Shown here one piece after another: positions 1-20,965 of a stretch of DNA of 24,349 nucleotides; the first letter of the stretch is position 1, and each line of letters opens with the position of its first letter. A program made the position numbers and the translations under genes. Under the pieces are notes generated by a model. That model had not been told where the DNA came from. It searched no databases and was given only the letters and a program-made list of their open reading frames with translations. This DNA comes from Candidatus Rifleibacterium amylolyticum (GTDB lineage Bacteria > Muiribacteriota > Ozemobacteria > Ozemobacterales > Ozemobacteraceae), in NCBI GenBank assembly GCA_009917695.1, contig JAACJG010000011.1, positions 156,997 to 181,345 of the forward strand, written 5' to 3'.

Positions 1-135
1 GTTCTCGGATCCGGCAACACTGCTGAAATCAGGGTTGCCGTCGACTGGTCTTTCGAAGGTAAAGAGCAGAAGCTTGAAATCAAGGGAAACATCGACGCGA
101 AGCCTTATCGCTTTACCCGCTTCGAGCGCTACTGA
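1..135 (+). CDS. 3' end of an upstream gene cut by the window edge. The product is unknown; it may be another pseudopilin given the neighbours.
   Basis: Frame 1 is open from base 1 to TGA at 133-135 and translates to a protein-like C-terminus (...AEIRVAVDWSFEGKEQKLEIKGNIDAKPYRFTRFERY). It ends 1 nt before the ATG of the next gene. The overlapping frame-2 ORF 35-136 is S/R/T-rich low complexity and looks out of frame. Confidence 0.4.
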   Translation, partial: VLGSGNTAEIRVAVDWSFEGKEQKLEIKGNIDAKPYRFTRFERY

Positions 136-136
136 G

Positions 137-628
137 ATGAGCAGCAAAACACAACAAATCCCGCAAAGTCTTTCCAGATATGGCCAGCGCGGCTTTACGC
201 TGGTTGAGGTAGTTGTCGCGATTGCGCTGTTCGCGGGCTTGATCATCGTGGTCAGTTCGATGTATTCGTTCATCCGCCGCACTTTTACCAGAGTAGATAA
301 CAAAAGTGCCGCCAGCTCTGAGATCGAACGCTTTCTGCTGCGGCTGGATTCTGAACTGCGTACTGCCACTGATGTAACAGTGCCTTCCTCTGATGCTCGT
401 TCCAACTGCCTCACCTTCGTCAACCAGGAAGGCAGCGAAATCAGTTACGAGCATACTGAAGACGGAACCCTCATCCGCACCGATTACCAGAGCGATACGC
501 AACGCGAAATAATGCATGGTGTCGCCAGTCTGACTTTTTCGCGACACACCCGTGGCCTGGTCGAAGTTTCCATAACCGTCGGCCAGGTGCCGGTATTGAC
601 CGCATTTCACGTCTGGAATCTGCCATGA
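137..628 (+). CDS. Pseudopilin (minor pilin) with a prepilin-type N-terminal cleavage/methylation domain, of the type II secretion or type IV pilus kind
   Basis: ATG at 137 gives MSSKTQQIPQSLSRYGQRG|FTLVEVVVAIALFAGLIIV. This is the class III signal motif (G-FTLxE followed by a hydrophobic helix). The stop at 626-628 overlaps the next ATG as ATGA. Confidence 0.7.
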   Translation: MSSKTQQIPQSLSRYGQRGFTLVEVVVAIALFAGLIIVVSSMYSFIRRTFTRVDNKSAASSEIERFLLRLDSELRTATDVTVPSSDARSNCLTFVNQEGSEISYEHTEDGTLIRTDYQSDTQREIMHGVASLTFSRHTRGLVEVSITVGQVPVLTAFHVWNLP

Positions 629-1140
629 AAAGAAATAACAGCAAGCGCGCCGGCATGGCGATACCGCTCGTTCTCGGCTTCATCTTCGTCGCCACCATCC
701 TCGGTACAACGCTGCTTTTTCTGTCCAAGACCCGCGGCGCCGATACGATCAGAACGGTCGGACGCTTTCAGCACCAGCATCTTACTCAGGCAGGCATCAG
801 CGAAGCGCTCGGTATTATCAAACCTTTGCGGATAACCGAAGTTATCGCCAAACGCGGGCCGCGCTGGGACTTCAACACTCCCCAACAGGAATTCGGCAAC
901 GCCACCGGCTGGTGCGAAGTCGAAGTCGAAACCCGTGGTGAAAACGAACTTCATATTACCTCGACTGGTTGCTGGCAGGAGCGCGGTGCTCCACTCCGCC
1001 GTCGCAGTTTTTCCTGTGCTGCGCGCTATAACGAAACCAGATCATCTGAGTCGAGTCGCTACAACACCATGGTTAAGATCGAGGGCGAATGGAAGATTGG
1101 CCGTTTCCAAGAAGCACAGCCAGAAAGAGCAGAGGAATGA
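625..1140 (+). CDS. Membrane-anchored protein that may be a GspK/PilX-like minor pseudopilin
   Basis: The N-terminus MKRNNSKRAGMAIPLVLGFIFVATILGTTLLFL is a basic leader followed by a hydrophobic helix, resembling GspK N-termini. The gene overlaps its neighbours by 4 bp at both ends, which suggests translational coupling. Confidence 0.5.
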   Translation: MKRNNSKRAGMAIPLVLGFIFVATILGTTLLFLSKTRGADTIRTVGRFQHQHLTQAGISEALGIIKPLRITEVIAKRGPRWDFNTPQQEFGNATGWCEVEVETRGENELHITSTGCWQERGAPLRRRSFSCAARYNETRSSESSRYNTMVKIEGEWKIGRFQEAQPERAEE

Positions 1141-1814
1141 CTTCGTTCAGTTCATACCTTTCTAAGGCAGATCTGCTTGCACTGAAGGATTATCTCGATA
1201 ACATGCGAGAGCCGGTGTGGGAATGCGAACTTATCAGAGTCACTTTCGCCGATGCCGACCTGATCAGCGGCAGTGCCCTTGAAATGTACCGCTGGCATTT
1301 CGTGCTTTTTCACCTGCTTTATCTGCTTGTGCCCGAATACGCAGAACAGAACCGCTACCTTCATATTCATTTTATGCGCACCTGCCTCAGAGATTACCCG
1401 GCTGCAGGCAGATGCCGCCATTTTGACGATGAACAGGCCGAATTCTGCGCTGCTTTATGCAGAAATGACGCGCGGTATTGTGATTTTCATCTGGCCCGAA
1501 TTGACGAAACCGGCATCGACCGTCTTTCTGACCGTTATTTTTATCTCGACCCGGCCAATTTTACAGCCTTGAGCGCTCAAAATGCCGAAAAATTCATGGC
1601 CGGCGCCTGGAAGCTGCTGCAGAATTACGAAGAATACCGGCGCTGCCTGGCCATACTCGATCTGCCGGAGGGCGTATCAATCGTTGTCTTGAAAAAACGC
1701 TTCAGATACCTGGCCAGAACCATGCACCCCGACATAACTGCCGGACATCACGAAGAGTTTTCGAAAATCAACACAGCCTATCGTAATCTGTTAAACTGGT
1801 TATCGGCAGGTTAA
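1137..1814 (+). CDS. J-domain protein of the DnaJ-related type, with a C-terminal J domain carrying an HPD motif
   Basis: ATG at 1137 sits after a GAGG ribosome-binding site and overlaps the upstream stop (ATGA). The C-terminus reads LKKRFRYLARTMHPDITAGHHEEFSKINTAYRNLLNWL, which is the J-domain helix II-HPD-helix III pattern. Confidence 0.7.
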   Translation: MTSFSSYLSKADLLALKDYLDNMREPVWECELIRVTFADADLISGSALEMYRWHFVLFHLLYLLVPEYAEQNRYLHIHFMRTCLRDYPAAGRCRHFDDEQAEFCAALCRNDARYCDFHLARIDETGIDRLSDRYFYLDPANFTALSAQNAEKFMAGAWKLLQNYEEYRRCLAILDLPEGVSIVVLKKRFRYLARTMHPDITAGHHEEFSKINTAYRNLLNWLSAG

Positions 1815-1827
1815 AGAGGCAAGGCTG

Positions 1828-2427
1828 TCAGTCCAGCTCTGCATCGGCATAAATCATTATAGGTTTGGCCCGTTCGTAAGTCAGCCGTGGGCCGCCGAGA
1901 TGGATCTTGCGTTTCAAAGCCCAGACACAGAGTCTGCCTTCGAGGTTGGCATACACTTTTTTGTCGTGCTCGGACAGGCTTTCATAGCCGACTTCACGCC
2001 ATTTACGGAAGGCCGCGCGCTCGGCTTCATTGACAAACACCAGTGAAAAACGGGTGTCAGGTGTGGCATGACATTCAAGTGAATAGCCATTCTCGCTGAT
2101 ATTATTAACAGAGATTTCTTCAGGCGTATCGAGGTAGATGTCTTCCAGAGCTGAGATTTCGCGGGTTTTGAGCGGCAGGCCGACAACCCTCAACATGGCG
2201 AGAATATCTGATGTCGATCTTCCCTGATTCAAAAAAAGAACAAAGCGGGCAGCAAACCCGGCCGGATCGCCGGCAAAGCGGAACTTGAGCAGCTCCTCAC
2301 CAGCTTCGCGCCCGGTCATGGTTTCCCACATCAGCCTCTCATCGCCAGTTATCGTATCCGGGCTGTAAGCGAACGCAGAAAGACTGAACAGACACAGCAA
2401 AATACAGAGAACCATGCGTGATGACAT
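1828..2427 (-). CDS. Secreted hypothetical protein with a signal peptide
   Basis: The N-terminus MSSRMVLCILLCLFSLSAFA is signal-peptide-like. It is a clean 199-aa ORF that converges on the J-domain gene. Confidence 0.55.
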   Translation of the reverse strand: MSSRMVLCILLCLFSLSAFAYSPDTITGDERLMWETMTGREAGEELLKFRFAGDPAGFAARFVLFLNQGRSTSDILAMLRVVGLPLKTREISALEDIYLDTPEEISVNNISENGYSLECHATPDTRFSLVFVNEAERAAFRKWREVGYESLSEHDKKVYANLEGRLCVWALKRKIHLGGPRLTYERAKPIMIYADAELD

Positions 2428-2450
2428 AAGTAAGAATTCCTCCTGCTTTA

Positions 2451-2474
2451 ATCATGTTTATCAGTTAACATGAT
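2451..2474. promoter_or_regulatory. Inverted repeat ATCATGTT-N8-AACATGAT in a divergent intergenic region; candidate operator
   Basis: The 8-bp arms read directly from the sequence, centred on GTTAAC. They lie between the divergent genes 1828-2427(-) and 2522-2911(+). Confidence 0.3.
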
Positions 2475-2521
2475 AACAGTTTATCCGGCAATGAGTTACA
2501 ATATTTGCGAAAGGATCAACC

Positions 2522-2911
2522 ATGAACATTTTGCTTTCAATTTTTCTGCTGCCTCAACTGCTGATAATGTACATTTCATTTCATCTGCATCTTTTTGCCC
2601 TGCCCATGATCAAGGAATTGATGCAGAAAATACCGCCAGACGCCGCAACCGCACTCAATGCCAATATTGTAGTCAGAATCGCCGGAGCGTTTGCGGGAGC
2701 CATCGATGCGTTCTACGGCTTCTGGTTCATTGCGATTCCTGTTTTTGCGCTGGTTTCTCAGGTTCTCGTCTATTTTTTGAAAAAGCAGAGTGAAGCAGTC
2801 GCTAAAGTCGGTGTTCTGTTGATAATGACTTTTTTTGCTACCCTTGCCTTTATCAGTCTGTCGGCACAAATGATGACACTGATCATGGTAACCGCGAACT
2901 ACACCAGATAA
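2522..2911 (+). CDS. Small integral membrane protein, hypothetical
   Basis: The 129-aa ORF has about four hydrophobic segments (LLSIFLLPQLLIMYISF..., FWFIAIPVFALVSQVLVYFL...). Confidence 0.5.
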   Translation: MNILLSIFLLPQLLIMYISFHLHLFALPMIKELMQKIPPDAATALNANIVVRIAGAFAGAIDAFYGFWFIAIPVFALVSQVLVYFLKKQSEAVAKVGVLLIMTFFATLAFISLSAQMMTLIMVTANYTR

Positions 2912-3063
2912 GTGAACACCAACCTGATTTTAACTGCGACACCATGGCAAAATACCGACAGAGTTGTCACACCAGTTGTCGCTGAGATTCGTCACAACGC
3001 CTTTTCTGGCAGCTCTTACCGATTCCCCCGATCGCTGGCATGTCATTTGCAATTTAAGCCGGC

Positions 3064-3771
3064 ATGCATTTTCATAATGAACACAACGACATAGCGCATA
3101 CTCAACCTGGCCAGGCGGCCAGTCGTGTGCAGGCGCGCGTCTGGCAGCATGATTTCGCATATCATGCAACATCTGACCGCGGCTTCAATATTTATTTTAC
3201 GCGCGGCATCCTGTTTTATCTGATGGCTTTCATATCAGTCTGTCTTGCCATCCCTTTGATCATTACCACTGGCATAAGTGTCGAAGCATTGATCCGTGAC
3301 CCGTATGAAGGTTTCATGCTGCTTTTCTGCATCATTCTCAACCTGCTGCGAGTTCTGACGGCTGCTATTTTGTACAAATATGTGCGCGACGCCTGGCGTG
3401 AGGTAAGATTCGATGCGTTCGATCAGATGCTGACTATCGAAGATAAACTGCCCTGGTTTGAACTGAGCCGAACGCAGGTCTTCCATATTTCTGATGCAGC
3501 CGGGCTTGAGATCAGAATTCTCAGAACCGTTGATCTTGCCCCGGCCGCTGCCGATGAAGACCCGGAAAACCCGGCCTGTGAAGTGCTCATGCAGTTGAAA
3601 GACGGCAGCGCAATCGTGCTGCTGCCTCGCGTCACATCGATTCAGGAAGCCCGCACTGTGACTTACGAGATTGGCGGTCTGACCGGCCTGACCCTGCTGA
3701 CAGACATTCACTCTCTTTATCGCCATATCCCACGGATAGAACGACAGCTTGCTGATGAAGACTTACTCTGA
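3064..3771 (+). CDS. Membrane protein, hypothetical; the N-terminal start is uncertain
   Basis: The 235-aa ORF has two transmembrane-like segments (ILFYLMAFISVCLAIPLIITTG, FMLLFCIILNLLRVLTAAILY). No recognisable domain. Confidence 0.45.
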   Translation: MHFHNEHNDIAHTQPGQAASRVQARVWQHDFAYHATSDRGFNIYFTRGILFYLMAFISVCLAIPLIITTGISVEALIRDPYEGFMLLFCIILNLLRVLTAAILYKYVRDAWREVRFDAFDQMLTIEDKLPWFELSRTQVFHISDAAGLEIRILRTVDLAPAAADEDPENPACEVLMQLKDGSAIVLLPRVTSIQEARTVTYEIGGLTGLTLLTDIHSLYRHIPRIERQLADEDLL

Positions 3772-3809
3772 TAAAATCTGCATAATGATTCAATGTTGAA
3801 AGGATCCTT

Positions 3810-5594
3810 ATGCAACTGCGGCTAATAGTGTTTTGTCTGACTGCACTGCTGTGTTTTGTTTTTATCACGCATACTGTCACTGCTTCTGATTTTTCTGGTC
3901 GTCAGCTTTTTGCAGCCTTCGAGGAGCTTGCCAGAAAGGGCAGCTTCAATATTTATGCTGATGCTGCTGATGGCAAAATTGCGTCTTTCACGGCTTCTGA
4001 AGGAGAAGACCCTGCTCTGACCCTTGTAAGACTGGCAAAAAACCAGGGTTTGATTGCCTTGCCGATGGGCAGCAGTTTTATGGTAATGCCGCGTGAACGC
4101 TATAACGAGCAGCAGGGACTACAGATCAGAGCGCTTGATTTTTCCAGACTACCAGCGTGCTACGCCAGTGTGAGAATTCGCAGCATATTGCCGCAATCGG
4201 TTAACTCTCATATTGCCAATGAAGCCCACAGCGTTTTTCTATCGGGCTTTCCAGACGATCTCGACGAAGCCGAACTGCTGATTGACCAGTTGTCCTCAGA
4301 GCAGACGCAGCTGCGTGTATACATACAGCTGTCAGCAGCCGATTCGGCGACGAGAACCCGACTTGCTTTTGTATGCATCAACGACATGCCGGCAAACTTT
4401 ACCTTTCAGCCAGCTGCCAGACCAGACGCATTGCTGGCAACTATTACCATTACTCTCAAGGGCAGAGATCAGGCGGTTCTCGCTGCTGCATTCGCCAATT
4501 CCACCGACCCTTCGGCAAAACTGGAAGTCAACCATGACCTCGACCTTCAGAGTGAAACTGCCAAAGAGTTTGTGGTCACTGTCAAAAACGACATCTATAA
4601 CCTCAGCGTGCGGGCAGAACCGATTTCAGCAGAGGCAATTCGCGTCAGCCGACCGCTGTCAGAAAATGACGATGACGAAATCATAATAGACGATGATGAA
4701 GAAGAAGCAACTGACGATTCAGAAGAAGAAAGTGCTGCTGAAACGCCGAAAGTCGAGCTCGATCGACCGGTCGGCGAGGTCTTTGCAAAAATTGCCCGTC
4801 AGAACGGTGCTAATATAGTCTGTGGCAGCAAGGTTGCGGGCACCCTGGCGATCTTTCGTTTCGGTGACAGGCCTTATTATGAAGAAGAATTCAATCTGGT
4901 CGCTCAAGTTAAGGGGCTCAAGGTCCGCAGAATCGGCAACACCTGGCTGGTTGGCGCCGAGAACATGCGTGATGCTGTTGAAAGCAGCCTGTATTCTGTT
5001 CGCCGGTTCAATCATTCAAGTGCCGCCGCCAGAATTGAAGATATCAGGGAAATGCTGAATCGACTGGGGCTGTCAGATAAGGTCCGGGTCGCCCGCGACA
5101 CTTACAGCAACACCCTGATAACTGGAGGCAACAGCCGCGTGATCGATGCCATCGCGAAATATGTCAGGCTGGCAGATGAACAGCCCGACATGATAAAGCT
5201 GCATTGCAAGTTGAATTCAGACAGCCTCGCCTTTGCTGAGGAGCTTGAGGTTCCAGCCCTGCGGCAGATCAGACGCAGTTTTTCCAAGGCCGAAACCCGC
5301 TGTGGAATTGCTATCACACCGGGCTACACTGATAAAAAAGGCAATATCAGCCTTAAATGGCTCATCCAGACAGCGCAGACCGACAACAAGATTTCGATCG
5401 GCAGCTTTGCAATGACTGCAGTGGCTCCCGGCATAGCTCTGGCTGAATTTGACTGGCCGGCCAGAACCCGCCTTGAGCTGGCAGGTACATACAGTCTGCG
5501 TGACCGCAGTCAGGATGACAACTTGTTCTCAGATGGCCCGGAGATCGAAAGCCCGCATGACACAAGTGAAGACCCGTTTTTCGACAAATTTTAA
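3810..5594 (+). CDS. Secreted protein with two secretin-N (STN/N0)-like domains and an acidic linker, but no secretin C-terminal pore domain
   Basis: An AAAGGA ribosome-binding site precedes the ATG and the product starts with a signal peptide (MQLRLIVFCLTALLCFVFITHTVTA). Two segments fit the STN/N0 pattern of secretins and TonB-dependent receptors: LFAAFEELARKGSFNIYADAADGKIASF...LTLVRLAKNQGLIAL and VGEVFAKIARQNGANIVCGSKVAGTLAIFRFGDRPYYEEEFNLVAQVKGLKVRRIGNTWLV. An acidic run sits between them (SENDDDEIIIDDDEEEATDDSEEES). Confidence 0.65.
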   Translation: MQLRLIVFCLTALLCFVFITHTVTASDFSGRQLFAAFEELARKGSFNIYADAADGKIASFTASEGEDPALTLVRLAKNQGLIALPMGSSFMVMPRERYNEQQGLQIRALDFSRLPACYASVRIRSILPQSVNSHIANEAHSVFLSGFPDDLDEAELLIDQLSSEQTQLRVYIQLSAADSATRTRLAFVCINDMPANFTFQPAARPDALLATITITLKGRDQAVLAAAFANSTDPSAKLEVNHDLDLQSETAKEFVVTVKNDIYNLSVRAEPISAEAIRVSRPLSENDDDEIIIDDDEEEATDDSEEESAAETPKVELDRPVGEVFAKIARQNGANIVCGSKVAGTLAIFRFGDRPYYEEEFNLVAQVKGLKVRRIGNTWLVGAENMRDAVESSLYSVRRFNHSSAAARIEDIREMLNRLGLSDKVRVARDTYSNTLITGGNSRVIDAIAKYVRLADEQPDMIKLHCKLNSDSLAFAEELEVPALRQIRRSFSKAETRCGIAITPGYTDKKGNISLKWLIQTAQTDNKISIGSFAMTAVAPGIALAEFDWPARTRLELAGTYSLRDRSQDDNLFSDGPEIESPHDTSEDPFFDKF

Positions 5595-5606
5595 CAGGAG
5601 TATCCA

Positions 5607-6446
5607 ATGAGAGTCACACACAAGCTGACTGTGCTGTTGATATTACTTGCCATTGCAATGGCTTCTTCTTCTATCGTCACTGCCGAAGATAATGAGGTGA
5701 ACACCGATTATTCCGGCTGGTCATTGCCTGAGATCATCGACGACATCGCGAAGATCGGCGGCACCAAGATAAGCGGCGACATTCCTGATGTTAAGGTTCT
5801 GACCGCCGACTTTTCGGGCGGCGTCTACTATGAAGAAGCGCTGAATCTGATTCTTAAAAGCTTTAATCTGGCGTTGCGCAAAAAGGGTGATGAATTTGTC
5901 GTTATCAGAGAAGATGCCGCCAGTGCCGACCCCGACACTACCCGGAACAAAACCCCCGAATCACGAAGCGCACAGACTCTGGCTGAGGTTATCACAGAAC
6001 TGGCGCCTGCCGGCGTCAGTGTACAGCATGTTCCCGAGAGTAATTCACTGCAGCTGAAAGGCAAAACACGCATGCTAAGCGAGGTCGATAAGCTGGTCAT
6101 CGCCCTGGACTTTCCGGTGCACCTGCTTCGATCAAGGTTTTATCTAAAGGCAGAAGCCGATGAAAAGCCACTGGCAGCCATAGAACTCGACACCGACAAC
6201 TGGGAAAAGTTCAAGCAGGCATTTGCCGATGGGAAAGGCGGTATCGAGGGCGCTATTGGCCTGAACGACGATGGTCATGCCAGCATAGAATTCAGCTGTG
6301 CTTTTACAGACGGCGATGACCGGCATCAGTTCAGTCACACTCTCTTACTCGCCGACCCGGCATTGGTGCACAAGCACAGATTCAGCATCGACGGCAAAAA
6401 CTGGGAAATCGGCTGGCAGGTTGAACAGGTGCGAAGAACACAATGA
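5607..6446 (+). CDS. Secreted protein with one STN/N0-like domain
   Basis: An AGGAG ribosome-binding site precedes the ATG and the product starts with a signal peptide (MRVTHKLTVLLILLAIAMASSSIVTA). WSLPEIIDDIAKIGGTKISGDIPDVKVLTADFSGGVYYEEALNLILKSFNLALRKKGDEFVV fits the STN pattern. Confidence 0.65.
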   Translation: MRVTHKLTVLLILLAIAMASSSIVTAEDNEVNTDYSGWSLPEIIDDIAKIGGTKISGDIPDVKVLTADFSGGVYYEEALNLILKSFNLALRKKGDEFVVIREDAASADPDTTRNKTPESRSAQTLAEVITELAPAGVSVQHVPESNSLQLKGKTRMLSEVDKLVIALDFPVHLLRSRFYLKAEADEKPLAAIELDTDNWEKFKQAFADGKGGIEGAIGLNDDGHASIEFSCAFTDGDDRHQFSHTLLLADPALVHKHRFSIDGKNWEIGWQVEQVRRTQ

Positions 6447-6453
6447 ATAAGGA

Positions 6454-7161
6454 ATGTTTCAGACGACCTTGATCCTGCTGCTCGCTTTACTCTGCCTGAC
6501 GCCGGCATTGAGCGGACAAACTCAGGCAGTTTCGCCTGGTCGGTCGCTGGTGATAGCTATAGATCCCGGGCACCCGTCAGAAACCAGCGGAGGCTGTGCT
6601 CACCATGGCCTCAAAGAAGTCGACATCTGCTGGCAGGTAGCACTGCAACTCGAAAAGCTCATAGCTGCCGAACCTGGGTTGCGTTCGATCAAAACGAAGC
6701 AGAAAGTCGATGAGCTCGTCAGCAACCGCGAGCGTGCCGAGACCGCCAACAGGGCCGGCGCCGCTCTGATGGTGCGCCTGCACTGCGACAGCGGCAACGG
6801 CAGTGGCTGTACTGTCTATTATCCCGATCGCCAGGGTACGGTTCAGGATGTTACCGGCCCGTCATACGAGGTGATTGCTGCCAGCCGTCGCGCGGCTGAG
6901 GGCATGCAGGCCGGACTTGCCTTCGTGCTGGGTGGCAGCCTGTACCTCAACCAGATAAAGACAGATTCGGTGACTTATGTCGGCTCGAAGCAGGGTGCGC
7001 TGACCGGTTCGATTTTTGCGAAGGTTCCAGCGCTCGTCGTCGAGATGGTCTATCTCAACAACGCCAGCGACGCCGCCTTCATCGGCAGTCCTGCCGGCCA
7101 GGATCTGATGGCCCAGGGTCTGCTCGCCGGCATCAAAGAGTTCGTTTCTGACAACAAATGA
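6454..7161 (+). CDS. N-acetylmuramoyl-L-alanine amidase of the Amidase_3/AmiC family
   Basis: The product has a signal peptide. It carries the conserved IAIDPGHP...E-ANRAGAALMVRLHCDS...YLNN-SDA core of the zinc amidase cell-wall hydrolases. Confidence 0.85.
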   Translation: MFQTTLILLLALLCLTPALSGQTQAVSPGRSLVIAIDPGHPSETSGGCAHHGLKEVDICWQVALQLEKLIAAEPGLRSIKTKQKVDELVSNRERAETANRAGAALMVRLHCDSGNGSGCTVYYPDRQGTVQDVTGPSYEVIAASRRAAEGMQAGLAFVLGGSLYLNQIKTDSVTYVGSKQGALTGSIFAKVPALVVEMVYLNNASDAAFIGSPAGQDLMAQGLLAGIKEFVSDNK

Positions 7162-7176: not shown

Positions 7177-7443
7177 TCATAGAATCTCTGAATGCGAACC
7201 GGTTCGGATAAATACAATCGTATCGTCTTCGATGCGATATATCAAAAGCCAGTCCGGCCCCAGATGACATTCTCTACAACCTTTCCAGTTTCCGATCAAA
7301 TCGTGATCACGGAACCTGCTCTCAAGTTTTTCCTCTTGCTGTAGCCTTATCATTACATTCTTGAGAGTCGCAATATTGCGGCCCTGCTTCCCGGCTTTTT
7401 TGTAATCTTTTTTGAATTTACTGCCATACTGGGCCTTAAGCAT
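7177..7443 (-). CDS. yafQ: Type II toxin of the YafQ/RelE family (mRNA interferase)
   Basis: HDLIGNWKGCRECHLGPDWLLIYRIEDDTIVFIRTGSHSEIL matches the YafQ C-terminal signature. The ATG at 7441-7443 overlaps the stop of the upstream antitoxin gene by 8 nt. Confidence 0.85.
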   Translation of the reverse strand: MLKAQYGSKFKKDYKKAGKQGRNIATLKNVMIRLQQEEKLESRFRDHDLIGNWKGCRECHLGPDWLLIYRIEDDTIVFIRTGSHSEIL

Positions 7444-7699
7444 CCAGATCCTCAAACATTTCCTCAGGTGTGTTATAAACTTTGCTCAGGTTCTTGCCCT
7501 CAATAGCCTCTTCAATCGCTTTTATCGTTTCAGGATTGGTAATCTTCACCGGAAATGGCAATCCCTGTTCCATGATGATCCGTCTGAAAAAAATGCCAAT
7601 TGCTTCACTGGTAGTCAGGCCGAGAGTCTTCAAAACCTTTTCAACCTCGGTTTTTATACCGGGCTCAATCCGTGTCTGGATAGTAGCAGTTTTACTCAT
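7436..7699 (-). CDS. dinJ: Type II antitoxin of the DinJ/RelB family
   Basis: The 87-aa protein begins MSKTATIQTRIEPGIKTEVEKVLKTLGLTTSEAIGIFFRRII, a ribbon-helix-helix DinJ-like N-terminus. An AGGAGA ribosome-binding site precedes the ATG, and the gene is immediately upstream of the YafQ-like gene. Confidence 0.85.
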   Translation of the reverse strand: MSKTATIQTRIEPGIKTEVEKVLKTLGLTTSEAIGIFFRRIIMEQGLPFPVKITNPETIKAIEEAIEGKNLSKVYNTPEEMFEDLDA

Positions 7700-7832: not shown

Positions 7833-9206
7833 TCAGTGGGACACCTTGAGAAACTGCAGATCGTCTGGGGTGCCGGTCTTAAGATCTGAGCCCGGGCTCA
7901 GCAGCGAAGGCGCTGAAGCGTTGTAATTCCAGGCGGCTGCGGTAAACGGGTCTTGCGGCAGCGAGGCCACGCCAAGCCAGGATGCGACTTCGCCAAGATC
8001 GGCCGGCCAGTTGCCATTTTCATTATGGTAAGCGTGCAACGCAACGGCCAGAGCGCCACCACGCAGCATTGCCCTGGTTTTGACCGACGTAATATAAAGC
8101 GTGTCAAGATTCGGCATCATCGTGCCCAGCAATAGCTGCATAAACGAAGTATCCGGCATGAAGAAGAATCTGGTGTAATGCAGGCCGAAACTCGCGTTGA
8201 ACTGTTTTAACGGGCGGGCCAGTTCGTGAACTTGCGCAAGCCGTTTTATCGCCTGCGGGTATGGTTCGGCGCAAACCTGTCGGAAGCCACTCATAATCGG
8301 GACAAGATAAGAGTCAACGACAGCCTGATCACTGAAAAGTGCCACAAGAGCGTGAGGATTTCTACCGAAAGTTTTCATGGCTTCACCGTTGTCTATGGCT
8401 CTCTGCCAATTGCGGGCAAAAGCCGGCCAGAAGTTGAGCTCGTTGGAAAGCACGCGTTCCGGCGAGGGGTATGACTTCTCCAGGGTTTCAGACCATTGCA
8501 GAACCTGGATGGCGTCCGCTTTGCTGCTTTTAATTGTCGGAGCGAGTTCACGCAGCAGACTGCCAGTCAACTGCCCGATGTTTTCGCCAATTGCGTGCCC
8601 CAGGATGGAAAGCGCACCAGTCCAGGTTTCGTGAATTTCAAGAATAGCGCCGACTGCCGCCGGAGCGAATGCAGCAAGCAGTGCCTGCTGCGAGTTCCCC
8701 TGTCGGGCAGCCTGCCATGCCAGCAACGCGCAAAAACGGGCACTGGTTCTGATCGGTACGTATGAAAGTGCTCCAACGTAACAGTTTTTTTCAGAGGGTT
8801 CGGGTGCTGCAACCGGAAAAGATGCCAACAGCTGCGGCAATCTGTCGCATATTGCCCGGGTTCTGGCATCGAGATCGGGAACATTGGCAAGCCAGGCTTC
8901 GATTTTAGCATCTTCAGCAAAAAATTCGCCGCTGCTTTTTCCCCCTTCACCCGCCAGACTGTAAAGCTGACTGTATGTTTCAGATGCCGCTGGTGGCATG
9001 ACCCCGTCAATGAGTGCCATGGGATTGGCGACTGATGAGTTCACGGCCGCCCTGAGATCGGGTTCAGACTTCTGCAGCTGGTTGGTGTTGAGGAAGCTGG
9101 CGTTCAGGTCATACCATAGCGTCAGCAGCCGATAACTCTGGATCAGCGAATATAATATGAGAGCAGCTCCCAGAATCACTCTGGTTTTGCTTTTTATCTT
9201 TATCAT
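7833..9206 (-). CDS. Large N-terminally membrane-anchored protein, hypothetical
   Basis: This 457-aa ORF is the longest open frame here. Its N-terminus KTRVILGAALILYSLIQSY is a hydrophobic anchor. No recognisable catalytic motifs. Confidence 0.55.
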   Translation of the reverse strand: MIKIKSKTRVILGAALILYSLIQSYRLLTLWYDLNASFLNTNQLQKSEPDLRAAVNSSVANPMALIDGVMPPAASETYSQLYSLAGEGGKSSGEFFAEDAKIEAWLANVPDLDARTRAICDRLPQLLASFPVAAPEPSEKNCYVGALSYVPIRTSARFCALLAWQAARQGNSQQALLAAFAPAAVGAILEIHETWTGALSILGHAIGENIGQLTGSLLRELAPTIKSSKADAIQVLQWSETLEKSYPSPERVLSNELNFWPAFARNWQRAIDNGEAMKTFGRNPHALVALFSDQAVVDSYLVPIMSGFRQVCAEPYPQAIKRLAQVHELARPLKQFNASFGLHYTRFFFMPDTSFMQLLLGTMMPNLDTLYITSVKTRAMLRGGALAVALHAYHNENGNWPADLGEVASWLGVASLPQDPFTAAAWNYNASAPSLLSPGSDLKTGTPDDLQFLKVSH

Positions 9207-11579: not shown

Positions 11580-11861
11580 ATGTGGAAAATATACGAACAC
11601 AAAAACCTGTTAAAAGCACTTGAAATGCTGCCTGTAGAAATCCTTAAGCGATATGAAAAGTGGAAAGATATAGTGGCAATTTCAGGCCCTGTTGGACTAA
11701 GGCAGATTAAAGGTTTCAATGACGAGCCATTGCGTGGGGCATGGAAAGGATACCGCTCATCTCGTCTCAATATTCAGTATCGCATTATTTACAAAATAGA
11801 AAACGAACAATTTTTTGTAAAAGTTGTTAAGGTAACGGCTCATGACTATCGGAGGAAATGA
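11580..11861 (+). CDS. higB: Type II toxin of the RelE/ParE superfamily, HigB-like
   Basis: The 93-aa protein ...FNDEPLRGAWKGYRSSRLNIQYRIIYKIENEQFFVKVVKVTAHDY matches the HigB/RelE fold signature. It is followed 1 nt later by an HTH antitoxin gene; toxin-first order is typical of higBA. Confidence 0.8.
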   Translation: MWKIYEHKNLLKALEMLPVEILKRYEKWKDIVAISGPVGLRQIKGFNDEPLRGAWKGYRSSRLNIQYRIIYKIENEQFFVKVVKVTAHDYRRK

Positions 11862-11862
11862 A

Positions 11863-12123
11863 ATGAAAGACTACATCGAGGCAAAAAAAAGAGCAGAAGT
11901 GTCTGTTGGCGAATCCGTAAGAATAATTCGTGAGCTCCAGAATTTAAGCCAGAGTGAGCTGTCTCAACTGACTGGCATACCTCAATCAACGCTTTCGGCT
12001 ATTGAGCACGATAAAATCAATCTGGGTGTTGAGAGAGCCAAAGTATTAGCAAGGGCTTTGAAATGTCATCCGGCTGTTCTGGTTTTCCCAGGCTGGGATG
12101 TAAGTCTGGAAATTGCGGCGTAA
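11863..12123 (+). CDS. higA: HTH_XRE-family antitoxin, HigA-like
   Basis: A GGAGGA ribosome-binding site precedes the ATG at 11863. VRIIRELQNLSQSELSQLTGIPQSTLSAIEHDKINLGVERAKVLARAL is a Cro/C1-type helix-turn-helix. Confidence 0.75.
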   Translation: MKDYIEAKKRAEVSVGESVRIIRELQNLSQSELSQLTGIPQSTLSAIEHDKINLGVERAKVLARALKCHPAVLVFPGWDVSLEIAA

Positions 12124-12131
12124 CCCCCGGA

Positions 12132-12500
12132 TTACTTTTTTGCTTTGCCGGCCGGCGCTGCCTTTGCAGAGGTTTTCGCCGGCTTTTTCTTCGGCTTCGG
12201 TTCGGGCAGTTCCTGTGTGGTGATTCTGATGAGCTCGCACAGCCATTCGCGATCTTCGAACTGGCCGTCGATGAGAAAATTCGGCTTCGCGCCAGGATAC
12301 GGCTGGCCCTCGACCACCTCACCGATAAAGGCGCGCCCGCCTGCCGTCGGCTTGACGAACAGCTGGTTATCGCACACCATGGCAACAACCTTGCCGCCGC
12401 AATAAATGGCATACTCGCCAAACATCTTTTTGCAGCTGACACCCTTCACATCCCGCAGCTGATCAACGATAAATTCGACAAATTCCGCATCAGAAGCCAT
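12132..12500 (-). CDS. TfoX/Sxy N-terminal-domain protein with a lysine-rich C-terminal tail
   Basis: A GAGGT ribosome-binding site precedes the ATG at 12500. MFGEYAIYCGGKVVAMVCDNQLFVKPT fits the TfoX_N core. The tail EPKPKKKPAKTSAKAAPAGKAKK is basic. Confidence 0.6.
   Translation of the reverse strand: MASDAEFVEFIVDQLRDVKGVSCKKMFGEYAIYCGGKVVAMVCDNQLFVKPTAGGRAFIGEVVEGQPYPGAKPNFLIDGQFEDREWLCELIRITTQELPEPKPKKKPAKTSAKAAPAGKAKK
12135..12164. repeat. 30-bp direct repeat, copy 2. It overlaps the 3' end of the TfoX-like gene and encodes its C-terminal tail ...KAAPAGKAKK
   Basis: CTTTTTTGCTTTGCCGGCCGGCGCTGCCTT, 29/30 identical to copy 1 at 10220-10249 and in the same orientation. Confidence 0.7.
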
Positions 12501-12597
12501 ATTGCACCTCAAGTTTTCAAAGTAATGCCAGTCCGAATCAGGACTACCATTCTGGCTTTTACGAAGGTATACTGAATTTTAAAGGATACGTCTGCAA

Positions 12598-12900
12598 ATG
12601 AACACAAAAATCACATATCAATATCGTGACGCCAGTAACTATAAGCTTTCTAGCGAAGTCATCATCAAAGGCGAACTGAGTTTTAAAGACCTAGAACCCT
12701 ACTTGATCGATAGCCAATTTTTTGTGCCCGAGGAGTTGCATTTGCCTCGCCTGCAATTCGACACTCACACAGAAGACGACCACGATTGGCATGAATTCCT
12801 AAGTCTCGAACCCTGCACCGACCCGCCATCAATCGGCTTGACAAGCCAAAAGCTTATCAAGGCTGCAAAAAGCTACAAGTTAAGCCATCCATACATCTAA
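12598..12900 (+). CDS. Small hypothetical protein (100 aa), first gene of an AT-rich cassette
   Basis: An AAGGA ribosome-binding site lies 12 nt upstream. Local GC is about 38% against about 55% in the flanks. The stop is 4 nt before the HNH gene's ATG. Confidence 0.5.
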   Translation: MNTKITYQYRDASNYKLSSEVIIKGELSFKDLEPYLIDSQFFVPEELHLPRLQFDTHTEDDHDWHEFLSLEPCTDPPSIGLTSQKLIKAAKSYKLSHPYI

Positions 12901-12904
12901 CTCA

Positions 12905-13654
12905 ATGACTAAAAATAACAACTGGACAAGAGAAGAGACGATCATTGCATTCGAACTTTATTGCAGAACACCATTCGGTAGAATGCATAAGGGTAACCCT
13001 GAAATAATCGAATTAGCGAAGACTATAACGAGAACCCCAAGTGCCGTGGCACTCAAATTATGTAATTTTGCACATTTAGACCCGACCTTGTCTCAAAAAG
13101 GCGCCTCACATGGGAGTAAGCAAGATCAAAAAATTTGGGACGAGTTCGCTTCGAATCTTGAATCGCTGATTGAAGCTGCCCATGCAATTAAGAAAAGATT
13201 AAAAATGCCTGTCGAAAGTGAAACTGACGAGCCAATTGACCAAATACGCGAAACAGACAAGTTTGCTACAGTCAAAACTAGAGTTGGTCAACGATTCTTT
13301 CGCGCTATGATTCTATCAAGTTATGATACAAAGTGCTGTGTCACCGGTATTGGCTTATCAGAAATATTGGTTGCCAGCCATATTATTCCTTGGTCTGTTG
13401 ACAAAGACCATAGATTGAACCCGAGAAATGGCCTGTGTTTGAACGTGATGCATGATAAAGTGTTCGATCTTGGCATGATGAGCTTGGACGATGATTACCG
13501 AGTGATTTTTTCGAGTAAAATTAAAGATGTTGCAGCCAAGAATGGTCTAGACTTTTTATTGCGGACTGAAGGACACAGAATTACGCTCCCCAAAAGATTT
13601 TTGCCTGATATATCACTCATCCAACAACACAGAATTCAAAATGGTTTTGAATGA
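12905..13654 (+). CDS. HNH endonuclease (HNH_2 / predicted restriction endonuclease type) with an N-terminal W-x-EE-x-AL-LY domain
   Basis: RVGQRFFRAMILSSYDTKCCVTGIGLSEILVASHIIPWSVDKDHRLNPRNGLCLNVMHDKVFDLGMMSLDDDY is the HNH_2 motif set (R-GQ-FR...Y...C-TG...L-A-HI-P...NGL-L...H--FD-G). The N-terminus reads NWTREETIIAFELYCRTPFG. The gene is AT-rich. Confidence 0.8.
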   Translation: MTKNNNWTREETIIAFELYCRTPFGRMHKGNPEIIELAKTITRTPSAVALKLCNFAHLDPTLSQKGASHGSKQDQKIWDEFASNLESLIEAAHAIKKRLKMPVESETDEPIDQIRETDKFATVKTRVGQRFFRAMILSSYDTKCCVTGIGLSEILVASHIIPWSVDKDHRLNPRNGLCLNVMHDKVFDLGMMSLDDDYRVIFSSKIKDVAAKNGLDFLLRTEGHRITLPKRFLPDISLIQQHRIQNGFE

Positions 13655-14357
13655 ACCGTAGTAAAAATTTCAGCATAATAGTTTTTGTCATATGCATTTC
13701 ACTGATGTTCTGTGAAAGTATTTATGCTGATGTAATAAAAGAAATTTCTTCATCCACCTATCACAATGAATCTTATGAGCAGAGATTTGCTGAGACGGAA
13801 GAACTCATGAAGCGGGGGGTGGCGCTGGGGCGGGAGAAGAAATATGCTGAGTCGGCGGCGGAGCTTAGGAAGGCGATCGAGCTGATTCCGGATAATGGGC
13901 CGCTGTGGTATAACCTCGGGATGTCGCTTTATAATGGCGGCGAGACGGATGCGGCCGGCGGGCGTGGCAGAAGACGGTTGAGCTGCGGCCGGATTATGCG
14001 GATGCCTGGTATATGCTTGGGATGCTCGATGCGAAAGAAGGTCGCAGCGCCGAGGCGATCGCGGCCTATGCGAAAAGTTCAGAACTCAAACCGCAGGACG
14101 GCGAAGCACAGGCAGCGCTGGTTAGAGAGTGTCTCAAACTCGCCCGACGTAAGTACGAGCAGCTGCAGCAGAGCGACCCGGCCCGCGCGAAAAAGCTGGC
14201 CGGCGAATTTCCCGGCAATGTTTCGCCTGCCAGCGGCAGCGGAAAACACCCGCTCGCCGATACCGAAATTCCGGGAACCGGCAAAACCTTCGACGAACTG
14301 CTTGAAATTTTCAAGCACATACCATTTCAGCGCACTCAGCCGAAAAGCCGACATTAA
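13651..14357 (+). pseudogene. TPR-repeat protein gene with a signal peptide, carrying a frameshift near 13945-13960
   Basis: The ATG overlaps the HNH stop (ATGA). Frame A gives a signal peptide (MNRSKNFSIIVFVICISLMFCESIYA) and a TPR helix (LWYNLGMSLYNGGETDAA). It then turns Arg-rich nonsense. Frame B continues the TPR sequence (AWQKTVELRPDYADAWYMLGMLDAKEGRSAEAIAAYAKSSELKPQDG...) to TAA at 14355-14357. The frames switch in the GC run GCCGGCGGGCGTGG. Confidence 0.55.
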
Positions 14358-15475
14358 AGGTATAGTTCTTTGAGAAAACGGTCAGCGTCGACAAGGTCGA
14401 TGTTGCCGGACGACTGCTCGCGTTTGAGGTCTTTGACGACCTGAACCCCTTTAAGGTTGTATTTTTCGCAGAACCAGACAAGGCCGGCTGCGATTTTATC
14501 GCGATCGCTTTTTGCTTCGATTGCCATTAAGACCTGCTGGTCGCGGCACAGGCAGAAATCGACTTCCCTGCCCTCTTTTGTGCGCAGGTATTTAAGCTCG
14601 AGCCTGTCGCCGAGACAGTCGTTACTTGCCAGAACATGCTTGAGCAGGCTTACGGCGAGATGATTTTCGAATTTTGCCCCGATATCGCCAACTACCAGCG
14701 AAGTATCATAAAAATAGACCTTGGGGGCCTTCAAAATTGATCGGCCGATATTGCTTGAATACGTGTAAATCCTGAAGATAATGAACAACGACTCGAGAAT
14801 GCTGATGTAACGGGTAGCGGTGACTGGCGATATTCCGGCGTCGCGTGCGATCGAGGCGATTGAAAGCGGCGAACCGACTGAGCGCCGGAGAATCTCAAAG
14901 ACAATTTTTATCGCATTCAGGTCATTGATATTCTCAAAATTCAGAATATCGGTTCTGATAAGACCGTCAATATACTGATTGCGCCAGCGTCTGGCATCGG
15001 TATCGCTCTCAGCCAGAAAGGGCTCAGGGAAACCGCCGCGTTCGATGAAACGATCGATAGTGGCCAGTTCAGCATGTTCTTTTACTTCAGCCAGGGAAAA
15101 AGGAAGCAGACGATGCGCAAAAAAACGGCCGGCCAGCGAGTCGCCGGTCTGTCTGAATGCATCGAGGCGGGCACTGCCGGTCACCAGAATTCTCAGGCCT
15201 TCTGCTCTGGTGTCGAACACACCTTTGATATAGTTCTTCCAGCCGGGCATCTTGTGCAGTTCATCGAGTATCAGCAAATCAGTATTTCTGGGCCAGGACT
15301 CAGCCTTGATAATCTGCTGATCTTCGAAGCGATCGTAATTCAGATACTGGCTGTGCTTGAATTTTCTGGCGATTTCCTTTGCCAGCCAGGTTTTGCCGAC
15401 CTGCCGGGGGCCGACAATGAAGACAATCTTCTTTTCGAGGTCATGAAGAATCTGATCGATCTGATTTCTGCGCAT
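14354..15475 (-). CDS. AAA-family ATPase (AAA_14 domain plus DUF4143 type)
   Basis: It has a Walker A motif (IVGPRQVGKTW), a Walker B motif (LLILDE) and a C-terminal region typical of COG1373-like ATPases. Confidence 0.8.
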   Translation of the reverse strand: MRRNQIDQILHDLEKKIVFIVGPRQVGKTWLAKEIARKFKHSQYLNYDRFEDQQIIKAESWPRNTDLLILDELHKMPGWKNYIKGVFDTRAEGLRILVTGSARLDAFRQTGDSLAGRFFAHRLLPFSLAEVKEHAELATIDRFIERGGFPEPFLAESDTDARRWRNQYIDGLIRTDILNFENINDLNAIKIVFEILRRSVGSPLSIASIARDAGISPVTATRYISILESLFIIFRIYTYSSNIGRSILKAPKVYFYDTSLVVGDIGAKFENHLAVSLLKHVLASNDCLGDRLELKYLRTKEGREVDFCLCRDQQVLMAIEAKSDRDKIAAGLVWFCEKYNLKGVQVVKDLKREQSSGNIDLVDADRFLKELYL

Positions 15476-15497
15476 ATGACTATTTTATACCAGACTG

Positions 15498-15541
15498 ACA
15501 AATAGTCAAGACTATTTGTTATTACGGTAAAAAATAGTCAA
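15498..15541. promoter_or_regulatory. Operator-like element: the palindrome ACAAATAGTC-AA-GACTATTTGT (15498-15519) plus a third direct copy of AAATAGTCAA at 15532-15541
   Basis: Read directly from the sequence. It lies 23-66 bp upstream of the ATPase gene start on the minus strand, and downstream of the gspF-like gene. Confidence 0.45.
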
Positions 15542-15544
15542 ATG

Positions 15545-16504
15545 TTATTTGATACTGTCGAGGCCGGAAAAGATCGAGGAGCCCATGCTGATAATGATAT
15601 AGGCGACAAAACCGGCGATTGGCAGGAAAAAGAGGATTGGCAGCAGTTTGCTGATGACCTGGATCTTGTGGCGGGCGTCGTCTTCGAGAAAATCGCTGGT
15701 TTTTTTCAGCATTTCCGGGAGCTTGCCGCTCTGCTCGCCGACCGTGATCATTTCTTTAATCGTCGAGGGAAGCGCGTTGACCGACTTGAAGCCGTCAGCC
15801 AGCGAACCGCCGCGTTGAATCGAAGCTTTGAGGCTCGACAGTTCCTTTTCGAGCCAGGCATTCGAAGTAACGCTGATCGAAGTTTCCAGACACTGCCCCA
15901 TCGAGACGCCAGCCTGCAGGCCGACACCGAGAGTGCGCGTAAAACGGCACAGTGCCAGTTTCTTGACTATTGTTCCGAAAAATGGAATCTGAACGAGAAT
16001 CGAAGCGACTCCGGAGGTTGACAAGAGCCGGTAAACGCCATAAAGTCCGGCAAGAATGACGGCATATATACCCACAGACCTGGCAATGCCCCAGGGGATC
16101 GAAGGCGCAGTTCCCTTTGCCAGAACAGATTCGAGAATCGGCAGCATCATCAAAGCGAGAAACAGCAGAAACAGCGGATAAGCCATCGATGAAAGAATTT
16201 CGCGCTCAAGATTCATCTCTTTGTCTGCGTATTCAGCCAGGGTTCCGCAGACTTCCGGCAGTGTACCGGTCTGTTCGCCAAACTTCGCAAAGCTGATCTG
16301 CATGCCGGTAAAAGGCTTGCCAGCGCGTTCCATGGCCGTCGAGAAAGCCATTCCCCTGTCAACTTCTTTTGCCATCTTTGCGACCTTGGCCTTCATGCCG
16401 AAGCCGCTGACATTTTCACTGAGAAGATGCAGCGTTCGGGCCAGGGTAACCCCCGACGCCAGCGAAGTTTCAAGCTGCAGAAAAAAGTCGCGCAGATTGC
16501 TCAT
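15545..16504 (-). CDS. Type II secretion / type IV pilus platform protein of the GspF/PilC family, in short form
   Basis: It has two T2SSF-like repeats with characteristic segments: ...MAYPLFLLFLALMMLPIL..., GVSMGQCLE... and EMITVGEQSGKLPEML. An AGGGGA ribosome-binding site precedes the start. Confidence 0.8.
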   Translation of the reverse strand: MSNLRDFFLQLETSLASGVTLARTLHLLSENVSGFGMKAKVAKMAKEVDRGMAFSTAMERAGKPFTGMQISFAKFGEQTGTLPEVCGTLAEYADKEMNLEREILSSMAYPLFLLFLALMMLPILESVLAKGTAPSIPWGIARSVGIYAVILAGLYGVYRLLSTSGVASILVQIPFFGTIVKKLALCRFTRTLGVGLQAGVSMGQCLETSISVTSNAWLEKELSSLKASIQRGGSLADGFKSVNALPSTIKEMITVGEQSGKLPEMLKKTSDFLEDDARHKIQVISKLLPILFFLPIAGFVAYIIISMGSSIFSGLDSIK

Positions 16505-16672
16505 ATATCGATCCCCTTAGCCAGAATTATTCAAATAAATGTTACACGTAAATACCGGGCAAATGCAATTAATCTGATAGTCGGGCGCGAAAAATTCATA
16601 TTTGACTGTTGCCTGCAAACACATGTGGAAGTACTATGTTAAGTAAACATATAAAGTATGGGGTGAAATATC

Positions 16673-18663: not shown

Positions 18664-18665
18664 AT

Positions 18666-19901: not shown

Positions 19902-19910
19902 GGAAATTAA

Positions 19911-20878: not shown

Positions 20879-20965
20879 AAAAATGGTCACAGTGAAGAGA
20901 GTAGCGACGAAGCAATCCATCTGCCAATGGGATTAGCATCAGAGCTGGGCTTATGCCTCCTGCAT

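Follow-up and report, generated by a model that had tools for sequence, protein, structure and literature searches.

What do the genes at the start of this stretch of DNA encode, and do they work together as one machine? The stretch (the window, 24,349 nucleotides) comes from a metagenome-assembled genome (MAG) of Candidatus Rifleibacterium amylolyticum, from the candidate phylum Rifleibacteriota; the product of its gene g7 (594 amino acids, 3810–5594) is identical to GQF41_3497 of that MAG. Positions 1–7161 are a genus-specific apparent operon that unites four kinds of genes: genes for pseudopilins and a J-domain protein, genes for membrane proteins, a pair of genes for secretin-like proteins (g7 and g8), and an amidase gene. 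The original prediction, made without database searches, was that these genes encode a non-canonical periplasm-spanning machine. Our main finding concerns the pair: on the evidence of sequence, it consists of two paralogues of the type IV pilus secretin PilQ that lack the pore, are duplicated internally, and are confined to Riflebacteria, with a function that we infer.

We call the two proteins paralogue A (g7, plus strand) and paralogue B (g8, 5607–6446, plus strand; 279 amino acids). Both have Sec signal peptides, and together they contain three modules, each with an N0 domain, an N1 domain, and a small beta domain. Three STN/N0-like domains in two secreted proteins had been predicted. TIGR02515 and hhalign support the assignment of three N0+N1 units, but Pfam's STN model did not match either protein, and Secretin_N (PF03958) scored 21 and 15 bits in A and B, which is under its cut-off of 28.2 bits. 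PF03958 did match 11/22 members of the wider family (best E = 3.4e-8). NCBIfam's model for PilQ (TIGR02515) aligned to residues 318–482 of A, at model positions 10–192 of 428 (E = 1.4e-8). When a profile of the family was compared to the PDB, it matched the N-domains of GspD (E = 3e-9). A profile search of the PDB also matched the N0 domain of PilQ from V. cholerae, and in a search of a viral library, pIV ranked first. B is homologous to the C-terminal half of A.

The AlphaFold2 model of A, which was built from a 26-member alignment (pLDDT 81, pTM 0.70), shows the same unit twice (N0, N1, and a beta domain of eight strands and about 100 amino acids), with an acidic linker between the two copies and a disordered tail at the end. 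The first module (3885–4622, pLDDT mostly 85–94) comprises N0 at residues 26–102, N1 at 105–163, and the beta domain at 167–271. The linker (residues 278–310, 4641–4739) begins with DDDEIIIDDDEEE and is disordered (pLDDT <50). The second module (4749–5492), which was placed by TIGR02515 and hhalign as well as by the model, has N0 at 314–382, N1 at 394–455, and the beta domain at 461–561. No other part of the family is as conserved as this second module, which bears a PilQ-like motif, YYEEEFNLVA..VRRIGNTW. The disordered tail (5511–5591) ends with DPFFDKF. Foldseek also found matches to phage hub proteins of the gpD/gp27 type (E about 1e-6). We dropped this relationship because the sequence homology leads to PilQ and the TM-scores were very low.

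The family to which A belongs is small. Word-indexed homology searches identified just three close relatives, even with a 26-sequence profile as the query, and a scan of genome contigs identified one. A sensitive and exhaustive search of 1.8 billion representative proteins with hidden Markov models (HMMs) identified 40 proteins with E up to 1e-3, most of which have 570–615 amino acids. (This kind of search was made with the g7 family only; g2, g3, g5, and g6 were traced only to close relatives.) Of these 40 proteins, 26 align end to end and share the same two-module plan, with a conserved C-terminus of D-x-AFDSSF-COOH. Most of the family members have this tail, and DPFFDKF in A is a diverged form of it. 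All of the family members with names are from Riflebacteria. B from the window corresponds to residues 1–270, or the first module, of the B protein from a distant locus (L016; E = 2e-29), so the predicted 279-residue STN protein is real but is a truncated form of a paralogue with about 610 residues. In this genus, B has lost its second module and its tail.

Where did this family come from? The metagenome scan also turned up genuine secretins of about 465 amino acids, with N0, Secretin_N, and Secretin domains (PF00263 at 7.8e-44). These are named PilQ and are assigned to Ozemobacteraceae, Rifleibacterium, or Riflebacteria. Comparing the family to these PilQ proteins with hhalign gave a probability of 99.6% (E = 2e-23), with an alignment that covers N0–N1 only and ends at the start of the secretin domain. 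Against the PDB, the family profile reaches about 40 residues into the secretin domains of the Neisseria and Myxococcus PilQ. The Riflebacteria PilQs contain the motif YYEE..NLIAK..VRKIGNTW, which they share with the g7 family, and they end in DDSFDNAFDTSF, which is the same tail as in the g7 family. Among the open reading frames (ORFs) of the loci that we compared, tails of the D-x-AFDSSF type occur on PilQ and on each of the two proteins of the pair, and on no other product. The profile matches, the fold, and the tail show that the family descends from the PilQ of the phylum itself, by duplication of this type IV pilus secretin.

Like A and B, the PilQ of Riflebacteria (about 465 amino acids; GQF41_0053 in this MAG) has a Sec signal peptide, N0 and N1 domains, the first strands after N1, and a disordered C-terminal linker that ends with D-x-AFD(S/T)SF. 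In contrast to PilQ, A and B have no recognizable PF00263 domain; they have a beta domain of about 100 amino acids instead, and the N0–N1–beta unit is duplicated within one chain. Also, they are encoded by a gene pair that lies apart from pilMNOP. These comparisons show that the family kept the N0–N1 region of PilQ (in tandem duplicate in the full-length proteins) along with the first strands of the secretin domain, and that the gated pore domain of about 240 amino acids was replaced by an all-beta domain of about 100 amino acids that is not matched by any secretin model.

That the STN proteins lack the C-terminal pore domain of secretins had been predicted, and this held up: Pfam's PF00263 was found in neither g7 nor g8 nor in any of 22 family members (0/22), even with E up to 10, and the model of A leaves only about 100 amino acids after each N1, whereas a secretin pore domain with its gate and lip has about 170–240. 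Could these small beta domains nevertheless be a pared-down secretin domain? Hetero-oligomers of A and B would then form an ungated channel in the outer membrane, where secretins assemble as channels of 12–17 subunits, and the internal duplication would reduce the number of chains needed. Foldseek does match entries that contain just a secretin barrel (6pee and 8axl). When we restricted hhalign to the second beta domain and the tail, they were collinear with the secretin domain and tail of PilQ, including a 'TP' strand, but this alignment was weak (80%, E = 1.4e-5) and of low confidence outside the tail, which is common to PilQ. In some lineages, an AlgE-like porin or a TPR lipoprotein adjoins the pair. 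Besides the missing PF00263 and the end of the full-profile alignment at the start of the secretin domain, the strands in the beta domains of A are 6–13 residues long in the model, which is short for a secretin barrel, as the beta-strands of those barrels are much longer. The family alignments contain no sequence counterpart of PilQ's gate, its lip, or its C-terminal IPLLGNIP/LF region, and hhalign found no significant similarity between the two beta domains of A. We consider it unlikely that A and B form such a channel.

To see what accompanies the pair in other genomes, we examined the more distant loci (L010/L017, L016, L018–L021, L052/L053, L055/L056, L057, L060, L061, and L062). At every one of them, an A gene of about 575–720 codons is followed directly by B. 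Where it is complete, B encodes 596–626 amino acids, and g8 finds its best match in B (E about 1e-24). The flanks available at these loci range from <1 kb to 10 kb; several of the contigs are short, and most of the loci are metagenomic and have no taxonomy. Within these flanks, hmmsearch found no homologs of g0–g3, g5, or g6, nor of the 457-residue protein encoded beyond the amidase. For three of the loci, it was the gene tables that were consulted, and these contain no pseudopilin, J-protein, or membrane-protein families either, and there is no prepilin motif beside the pair in any of the distant loci that were scanned (0/11). Overall, the family always comes as a tandem A+B pair, with proteins of about 590 and 610 amino acids; the pair is found in at least nine lineages with varying neighbors, and it is self-contained in at least eight more distant lineages. 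The loci of the family vary from 46 to 71% GC. This shows that the conserved unit across the phylum is the tandem pair and not the whole cluster.

The full gene order (g0–g3 and g5–g9) is complete only in L003, with L004 and L013. From g3 to g7, the order is kept on a partial contig (L009), and additional incomplete contigs from the L003 relative keep parts of the full order. The relatives are close (81% and 69% identity on g7, and 80–84% DNA identity for L003), and at this distance, unrelated flanking genes (pirin and the 457-residue gene) are syntenic as well. Thus, a survey of gene order found conservation within one genus only, which largely undermines the idea that the whole cluster is a machine. 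In the relative with 69% identity, there is a gap of about 780 nucleotides between the orthologs of g6 and g7 (L009:1439–2220), versus 38 nucleotides in the window.

Some of the pair's neighbors elsewhere might hint at a role in signaling. N0/STN-type domains could mediate interactions or pass on signals in the periplasm, as happens in TonB-dependent transducers with FecR/PupR, and the pair would then control neighboring membrane sensors or cell-wall hydrolases. In L018–L020, the pair is followed, in the same orientation, by two HAMP+SpoIIE(PP2C) membrane sensors of about 965 amino acids each (in L019, at 12760–18544, starting just 37 nucleotides downstream), and in L010, a convergent HAMP+guanylate-cyclase sensor (4135–7089) adjoins the pair. 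An amidase gene and a gene with weak similarity to NlpC/P60 lie near the pair in L052. However, sensors are found in just two lineages, and the neighbors are otherwise unrelated: L016 has a TPR lipoprotein that is translationally coupled upstream of the pair and has weak similarity to PilW/Tgl, L055 has the AlgE-like porin, and L052 and L060 have TPR proteins nearby. The window's own pair has no adjacent sensor, and A and B are far more similar to secretins, in both sequence and fold, than to FecR/PupR. We give a signaling role little credence.

The amidase is the partner that does recur. The last gene of the cluster (g9, 6454–7161, plus strand) encodes a secreted N-acetylmuramoyl-L-alanine amidase of 235 amino acids. 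As predicted, it belongs to Amidase_3 (PF01520; E = 3.6e-26, 92.7 bits versus a cut-off of 27, covering 173/174 profile positions), and it matches AmiC, Rv3717, and CwlV in the PDB. By inspection, it contains the motifs DPGH..E..H..E. The Amidase_3 domain is full-length, as in Rv3717, CwlV, and the catalytic domain of AmiC, but g9 has the catalytic domain only, with no AMIN, LysM, or SPOR targeting domain. Also unlike those amidases, it is encoded directly after a truncated secretin paralogue (g8). In L052/L053, which represent a very distant lineage with 71% GC, a homolog of g9 (E = 1.7e-60; Amidase_3 at E = 3.1e-25) is encoded 2.3 kb downstream of the pair, and the NlpC/P60-like gene of L052 is beside it. 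The amidase is the sole partner from the window that recurs near the pair elsewhere, so a link between them has some independent support.

How do the other genes of the cluster fit in? The predicted genes were all present at the positions given for them, and they are tightly packed: there are ATGA overlaps at the g1/g2 and g2/g3 junctions, and the intergenic gaps are 38 nucleotides for g6–g7, 12 for g7–g8, and 7 for g8–g9. The ratio of nonsynonymous to synonymous substitution rates (dN/dS), relative to the close relative L003, is 0.09–0.23 for all of the cluster genes, which indicates purifying selection, so the ORFs without family matches are real genes too. A scan of the region for promoters and terminators was uninformative (the counts were near the expectation from shuffling), PADLOC found no link of the cluster genes to defense, and megablast against E. 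coli found no match. The matches in PHROGs were generic (endolysin families for the amidase, a weak match of g8 to M13 pIV, and one family of unknown function for g3), so there is no sign of a phage origin.

The first three genes, all on the plus strand, resemble a set of minor pseudopilins. Two or three prepilin-type genes had been predicted; there are three, of which positions 1–135 are only the 3' end of the first, and the third has no family match. A Logan contig (L001) adds 488 bp upstream of the window and completes g0 (L001:108–623; 171 amino acids), which is GspI/PilV/ComGE-like. Its N-terminus forms a hydrophobic helix (TTA|TTLVEILIA), its matches to PilV, XpsI, ComGE, and GspI are weak (E = 6e-5 to 0.015, every one under its curated cut-off), and its dN/dS is 0.14. 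The second gene (g1, 137–628, 163 amino acids) is a GspJ/ComGF-like minor pseudopilin with a canonical prepilin motif (QRG|FTLVEVV) and a match to N_methyl (26.9 bits; the cut-off is 21.2). Its similarity to ComGF (E = 1.1e-10) and GspJ (E = 2.5e-6) does not reach the curated cut-offs. The third gene (g2, 625–1140, 171 amino acids) is not matched by any HMM, and a sequence search of the PDB was empty. Its N-terminus (KRAG|MAIPLVLG) is in the style of GspK/ComGG and lacks Glu5, and it is kept in L003 with a dN/dS of 0.15. Judging by its position and N-terminus, g2 is a putative pseudopilin.

Three consecutive, coupled small genes with N-terminal hydrophobic helices are also seen in GspI-GspJ-GspK, ComGE-ComGF-ComGG, and PilV-W-X. 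As in those sets, it is the middle gene that has the canonical prepilin motif and similarity to ComGF/GspJ, and the third gene lacks Glu5, as GspK also does. The minor pseudopilin set is thus present as g0–g2, with g2 placed by position only. Unlike the known sets, all of the matches except N_methyl are below the curated cut-offs, g2 matches nothing, and a J-domain gene comes next; the cluster has no GspH-like gene, major pilin, ATPase, platform protein, or prepilin peptidase. Among the translated genes of the cluster, there is just one canonical prepilin motif (in g1), and there is one in L003. No family match to prepilin peptidase was found among the window ORFs that were scanned.

The J-domain gene (g3, 1137–1814, plus strand) encodes a cytoplasmic protein of 225 amino acids. 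As had been predicted, it has an ATGA overlap with a neighbor, which is on its upstream side (g2). It matches DNAJ_related (PF12339; 32.2 bits, cut-off 25) and DnaJ (PF00226; 29.1 bits, cut-off 27.8), it has J-domain matches in the PDB, and it contains the HPD motif (...RTMHPDITAG...). Other J-proteins of the DNAJ_related family likewise have the DNAJ_related domain with its YFYLD motif at the N-terminus and the J-domain with HPD at the C-terminus; what sets g3 apart is its translational coupling to pseudopilin genes. A literature search returned nothing usable on the PF12339 family, so no function could be transferred to g3.

Just after g3, the operon is interrupted. Where the blastn alignment to L003 is broken (1799/2509), the sequence of L003 itself runs on (8681->8706), which identifies a lineage-specific insertion of 709 bp (1800–2508) that lies outside the conserved operon and splits it between g3 and g5. 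Within the insertion is a minus-strand gene that the original prediction overlooked (g4, 1828–2427). It encodes a secreted protein of 199 amino acids with no matches in Pfam, NCBIfam, PADLOC, or PHROGs. A promoter-like site (2473–2502) falls within the inserted DNA as well. Beyond the insertion are the two predicted small membrane proteins, which we could confirm by hydropathy only: g5 (2522–2911, plus strand) is a polytopic protein of 129 amino acids with 3–4 hydrophobic segments and no family match, and g6 (3064–3771, plus strand) has 235 amino acids, with two transmembrane segments and a C-terminal domain of about 120 amino acids. g6 has no reliable family match (DUF898 scored 17.6 bits, which is under its cut-off). 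Among the loci that we compared, only close relatives have homologs of g5 and g6.

Is this cluster a secretion system or a pilus? Consistent with the prediction that it is not a textbook type II secretion or type IV pilus operon, there is no ATPase, secretin, or pore domain nearby. In particular, as had been predicted, the window ORFs that were scanned against Pfam include no GspE/PilB ATPase, and the gene table of the relative L003 lists none in the 6.5 kb upstream of the cluster there. The predicted GspF/PilC-like platform protein is real (15545–16504, minus strand, 319 amino acids; T2SSF at E = 1.9e-48, and GspF at E = 7.6e-46, which is under the equivalog cut-off), and it is an orphan, on the opposite strand from the cluster and 8.4 kb downstream of it. 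On the same strand, it is followed by an AAA_14/DUF4143 ATPase (not GspE; 14354–16504 for both), and L003 has the same arrangement.

A check for a secretin or an ATPase in the flanking genome found none nearby, but the genome does have a secretin. GQF41_0053 from the same MAG falls in the 90% cluster of the PilQ from L049 and is a canonical PilQ. (L049 shares its metagenome of origin with the relative L004, and their compositions match.) Two contigs from elsewhere (one from a Logan assembly, the other from GCA_012515325.1) encode a protein identical to GQF41_0053, behind pilM, pilN, pilO, and a pilP-like gene, and on one of these two contigs, SpoIID is upstream of pilMNOPQ. In the long loci that we examined (L039, L049, L058, and L059), the PilQs of Riflebacteria are in pilM-N-O-(P)-Q loci, and in two of these, a peptidoglycan hydrolase with a SpoIID/LytB domain is directly upstream (L049:4859–6325 and L059:287–1753). 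With the amidase at the pair, this means that wall-remodeling enzymes accompany both the secretin locus and the paralogue pair. Genomes often have their genes for type IV pili dispersed among several loci, so a minor-pilin operon without a nearby ATPase or secretin is not unusual in itself. A literature search found nothing usable on the pili of Rifleibacterium.

Given these results, we can return to the idea that all ten genes encode one dedicated, non-canonical apparatus that spans the periplasm and is related to pili or secretion systems. The pseudopilins would form a short filament, the membrane proteins its base, and A and B a periplasmic or outer ring, and the amidase would breach the cell wall. 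That the genes are packed as in an operon (two ATGA overlaps, and 7–38 nucleotides in the gaps) would make sense for such a machine, as would an order that is kept in three species-level lineages, purifying selection on every gene (including those without matches), and the amidase near the pair in L052/L053. However, the synteny is confined to very close relatives, in which unrelated flanks are syntenic too; in the at least eight distant lineages, with flanks of up to 10 kb, the pair occurs without pseudopilins, J-protein, or membrane proteins. Also, the cluster contains no ATPase, major pilin, prepilin peptidase, or platform, the operon is split here by inserted DNA with a gene on the opposite strand, and the canonical PilQ machinery is elsewhere in the genome. 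The prediction of a periplasm-spanning machine is therefore weakly supported, and we consider it improbable.

At the other extreme, the pseudopilin and J-protein genes, the membrane-protein genes, the A/B pair, and the amidase might be independent and have become adjacent in one genus by chance. The variable context of the pair elsewhere and the insertions within and beside the cluster, which indicate local gene flux, would fit with this, and the promoter and terminator scans do not help to decide. But the genes of g0–g3 and g6–g9 are on the same strand, with overlaps or very short gaps, and the amidase is near the pair in a second lineage that is very distant and has 71% GC. We very much doubt that the neighbors are unrelated.

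The picture that we prefer is that a PilQ-derived, pore-less pair forms a ring or collar and that the pilus machinery is encoded elsewhere. A and B would be exported by Sec and would oligomerize in the periplasm via their ring-building N0/N1 domains, giving a ring or collar without a pore. Their C-terminal peptide, which they share with PilQ, would deliver them to, or dock them at, the outer membrane or PilQ, using the same partner that PilQ uses. In Rifleibacterium, the pair would be expressed together with minor pseudopilins that resemble a GspI/J/K tip set, with a J-protein (to which DnaK could be recruited), with two proteins of the inner membrane, and with the amidase, which would open the peptidoglycan wall locally for assembly. 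Type IV pilus machinery from other parts of the genome, and not a private machine, would assemble the pseudopilins.

There are precedents for parts of this picture. The tails of secretin S-domains insert into pilotins (PMC12531336). BfpG, a stand-alone N0-like protein, forms a 17-mer hoop around the N3 ring of its secretin (PMC12531336). Like A and B, BfpG/TcpQ, which are secretin partners in type IVb pili, are periplasmic proteins that are not lipoproteins and have an N0-type fold but no pore domain (PMC12531336). However, BfpG is a single small N0-like domain that is encoded beside its secretin, while A and B are encoded far from pilQ, have about 600 amino acids in N0+N1+beta modules, and are clearly homologous to PilQ in sequence.

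Several observations weigh against the picture of a PilQ-derived ring. In the loci that we examined, the A/B pair is never adjacent to pilQ. The oligomerization, localization, and partners of A and B are only predicted. The divergence in this genus, where the tail of A has become DPFFDKF and B is without its second module and tail, fits poorly with tail docking being essential. Outside of the tail, the small beta domain is only weakly similar to the secretin domain, and the two beta domains do not align significantly to each other. Finally, the tight packing, the ATGA overlaps, and the recurrence of the amidase leave room for the genus-level operon to be a real functional unit. On balance, we give the overall picture an even chance of being right, mostly because of the parts that were shown (the descent, the domain plan, the lack of a detectable pore domain, the tail, the pairing, and the variable context). 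The step in which A and B form a ring and dock is, taken alone, a tentative idea that could well be wrong.

A bolder idea is that A and B are an unrecognized class of reduced secretins: an internally duplicated, hetero-oligomeric, and gate-less ring that would be the outer or periplasmic conduit of a minimal type IV filament-like apparatus and that, in Rifleibacterium, would work directly with the adjacent GspI/J/K-like pseudopilins, the membrane proteins, a J-protein that recruits DnaK, and the amidase. If true, this would add to the type IV filament superfamily a branch that has no private ATPase. We view it as a long shot.

The rest of the window contains several genes that are outside the cluster. 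Just beyond the amidase, two minus-strand genes (7177–7443 and 7436–7699) encode a YafQ/ParE-type toxin and a RelB antitoxin (from Pfam matches on the identical Logan contig). This pair occupies the site of a second copy of the 457-residue gene in relatives. The 457-residue protein (7833–9206, minus strand, convergent to the amidase) has an N-terminal membrane anchor and no family match, and its gene is duplicated in tandem in a relative (462 and 458 amino acids). Two ORFs of 93 amino acids at 11580–12512 resemble a toxin-antitoxin pair, and the counterpart ORF in L003 is annotated as HigB_toxin; a TfoX_N-like gene (12132–12512, minus strand) was identified from the annotation of L003. A plus-strand TPR gene (13651–14357) is frameshifted from frame 0 to frame 2 near 13950–13965, while its ortholog in L003 (19664–20380) is intact, so it could be either an assembly error or a pseudogene. 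Finally, the plus-strand genes at 16673–22195 encode a LolA_like protein, two MacB_PCD/FtsX permeases, an ABC ATPase, and then a protein of 443 amino acids without a match. To judge by these families, this looks like a transporter for envelope export or of the lipoprotein-release type.

A gated pore domain is what normally defines a secretin. To our knowledge, pore-less derivatives of PilQ that retain N0–N1 and the tail, are duplicated in tandem, and form a fixed gene pair across a candidate phylum have not been described. For annotation, A and B should be labeled as PilQ-like N-terminal-domain paralogues, rather than as hypothetical proteins or as secretins, and the cluster should be left out of counts of secretion systems. 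A and B could show how ring-building N-domains are reused as periplasmic collars or scaffolds, and the tail that they share with PilQ offers a way to search for the pilotin or docking partner of PilQ in Riflebacteria.

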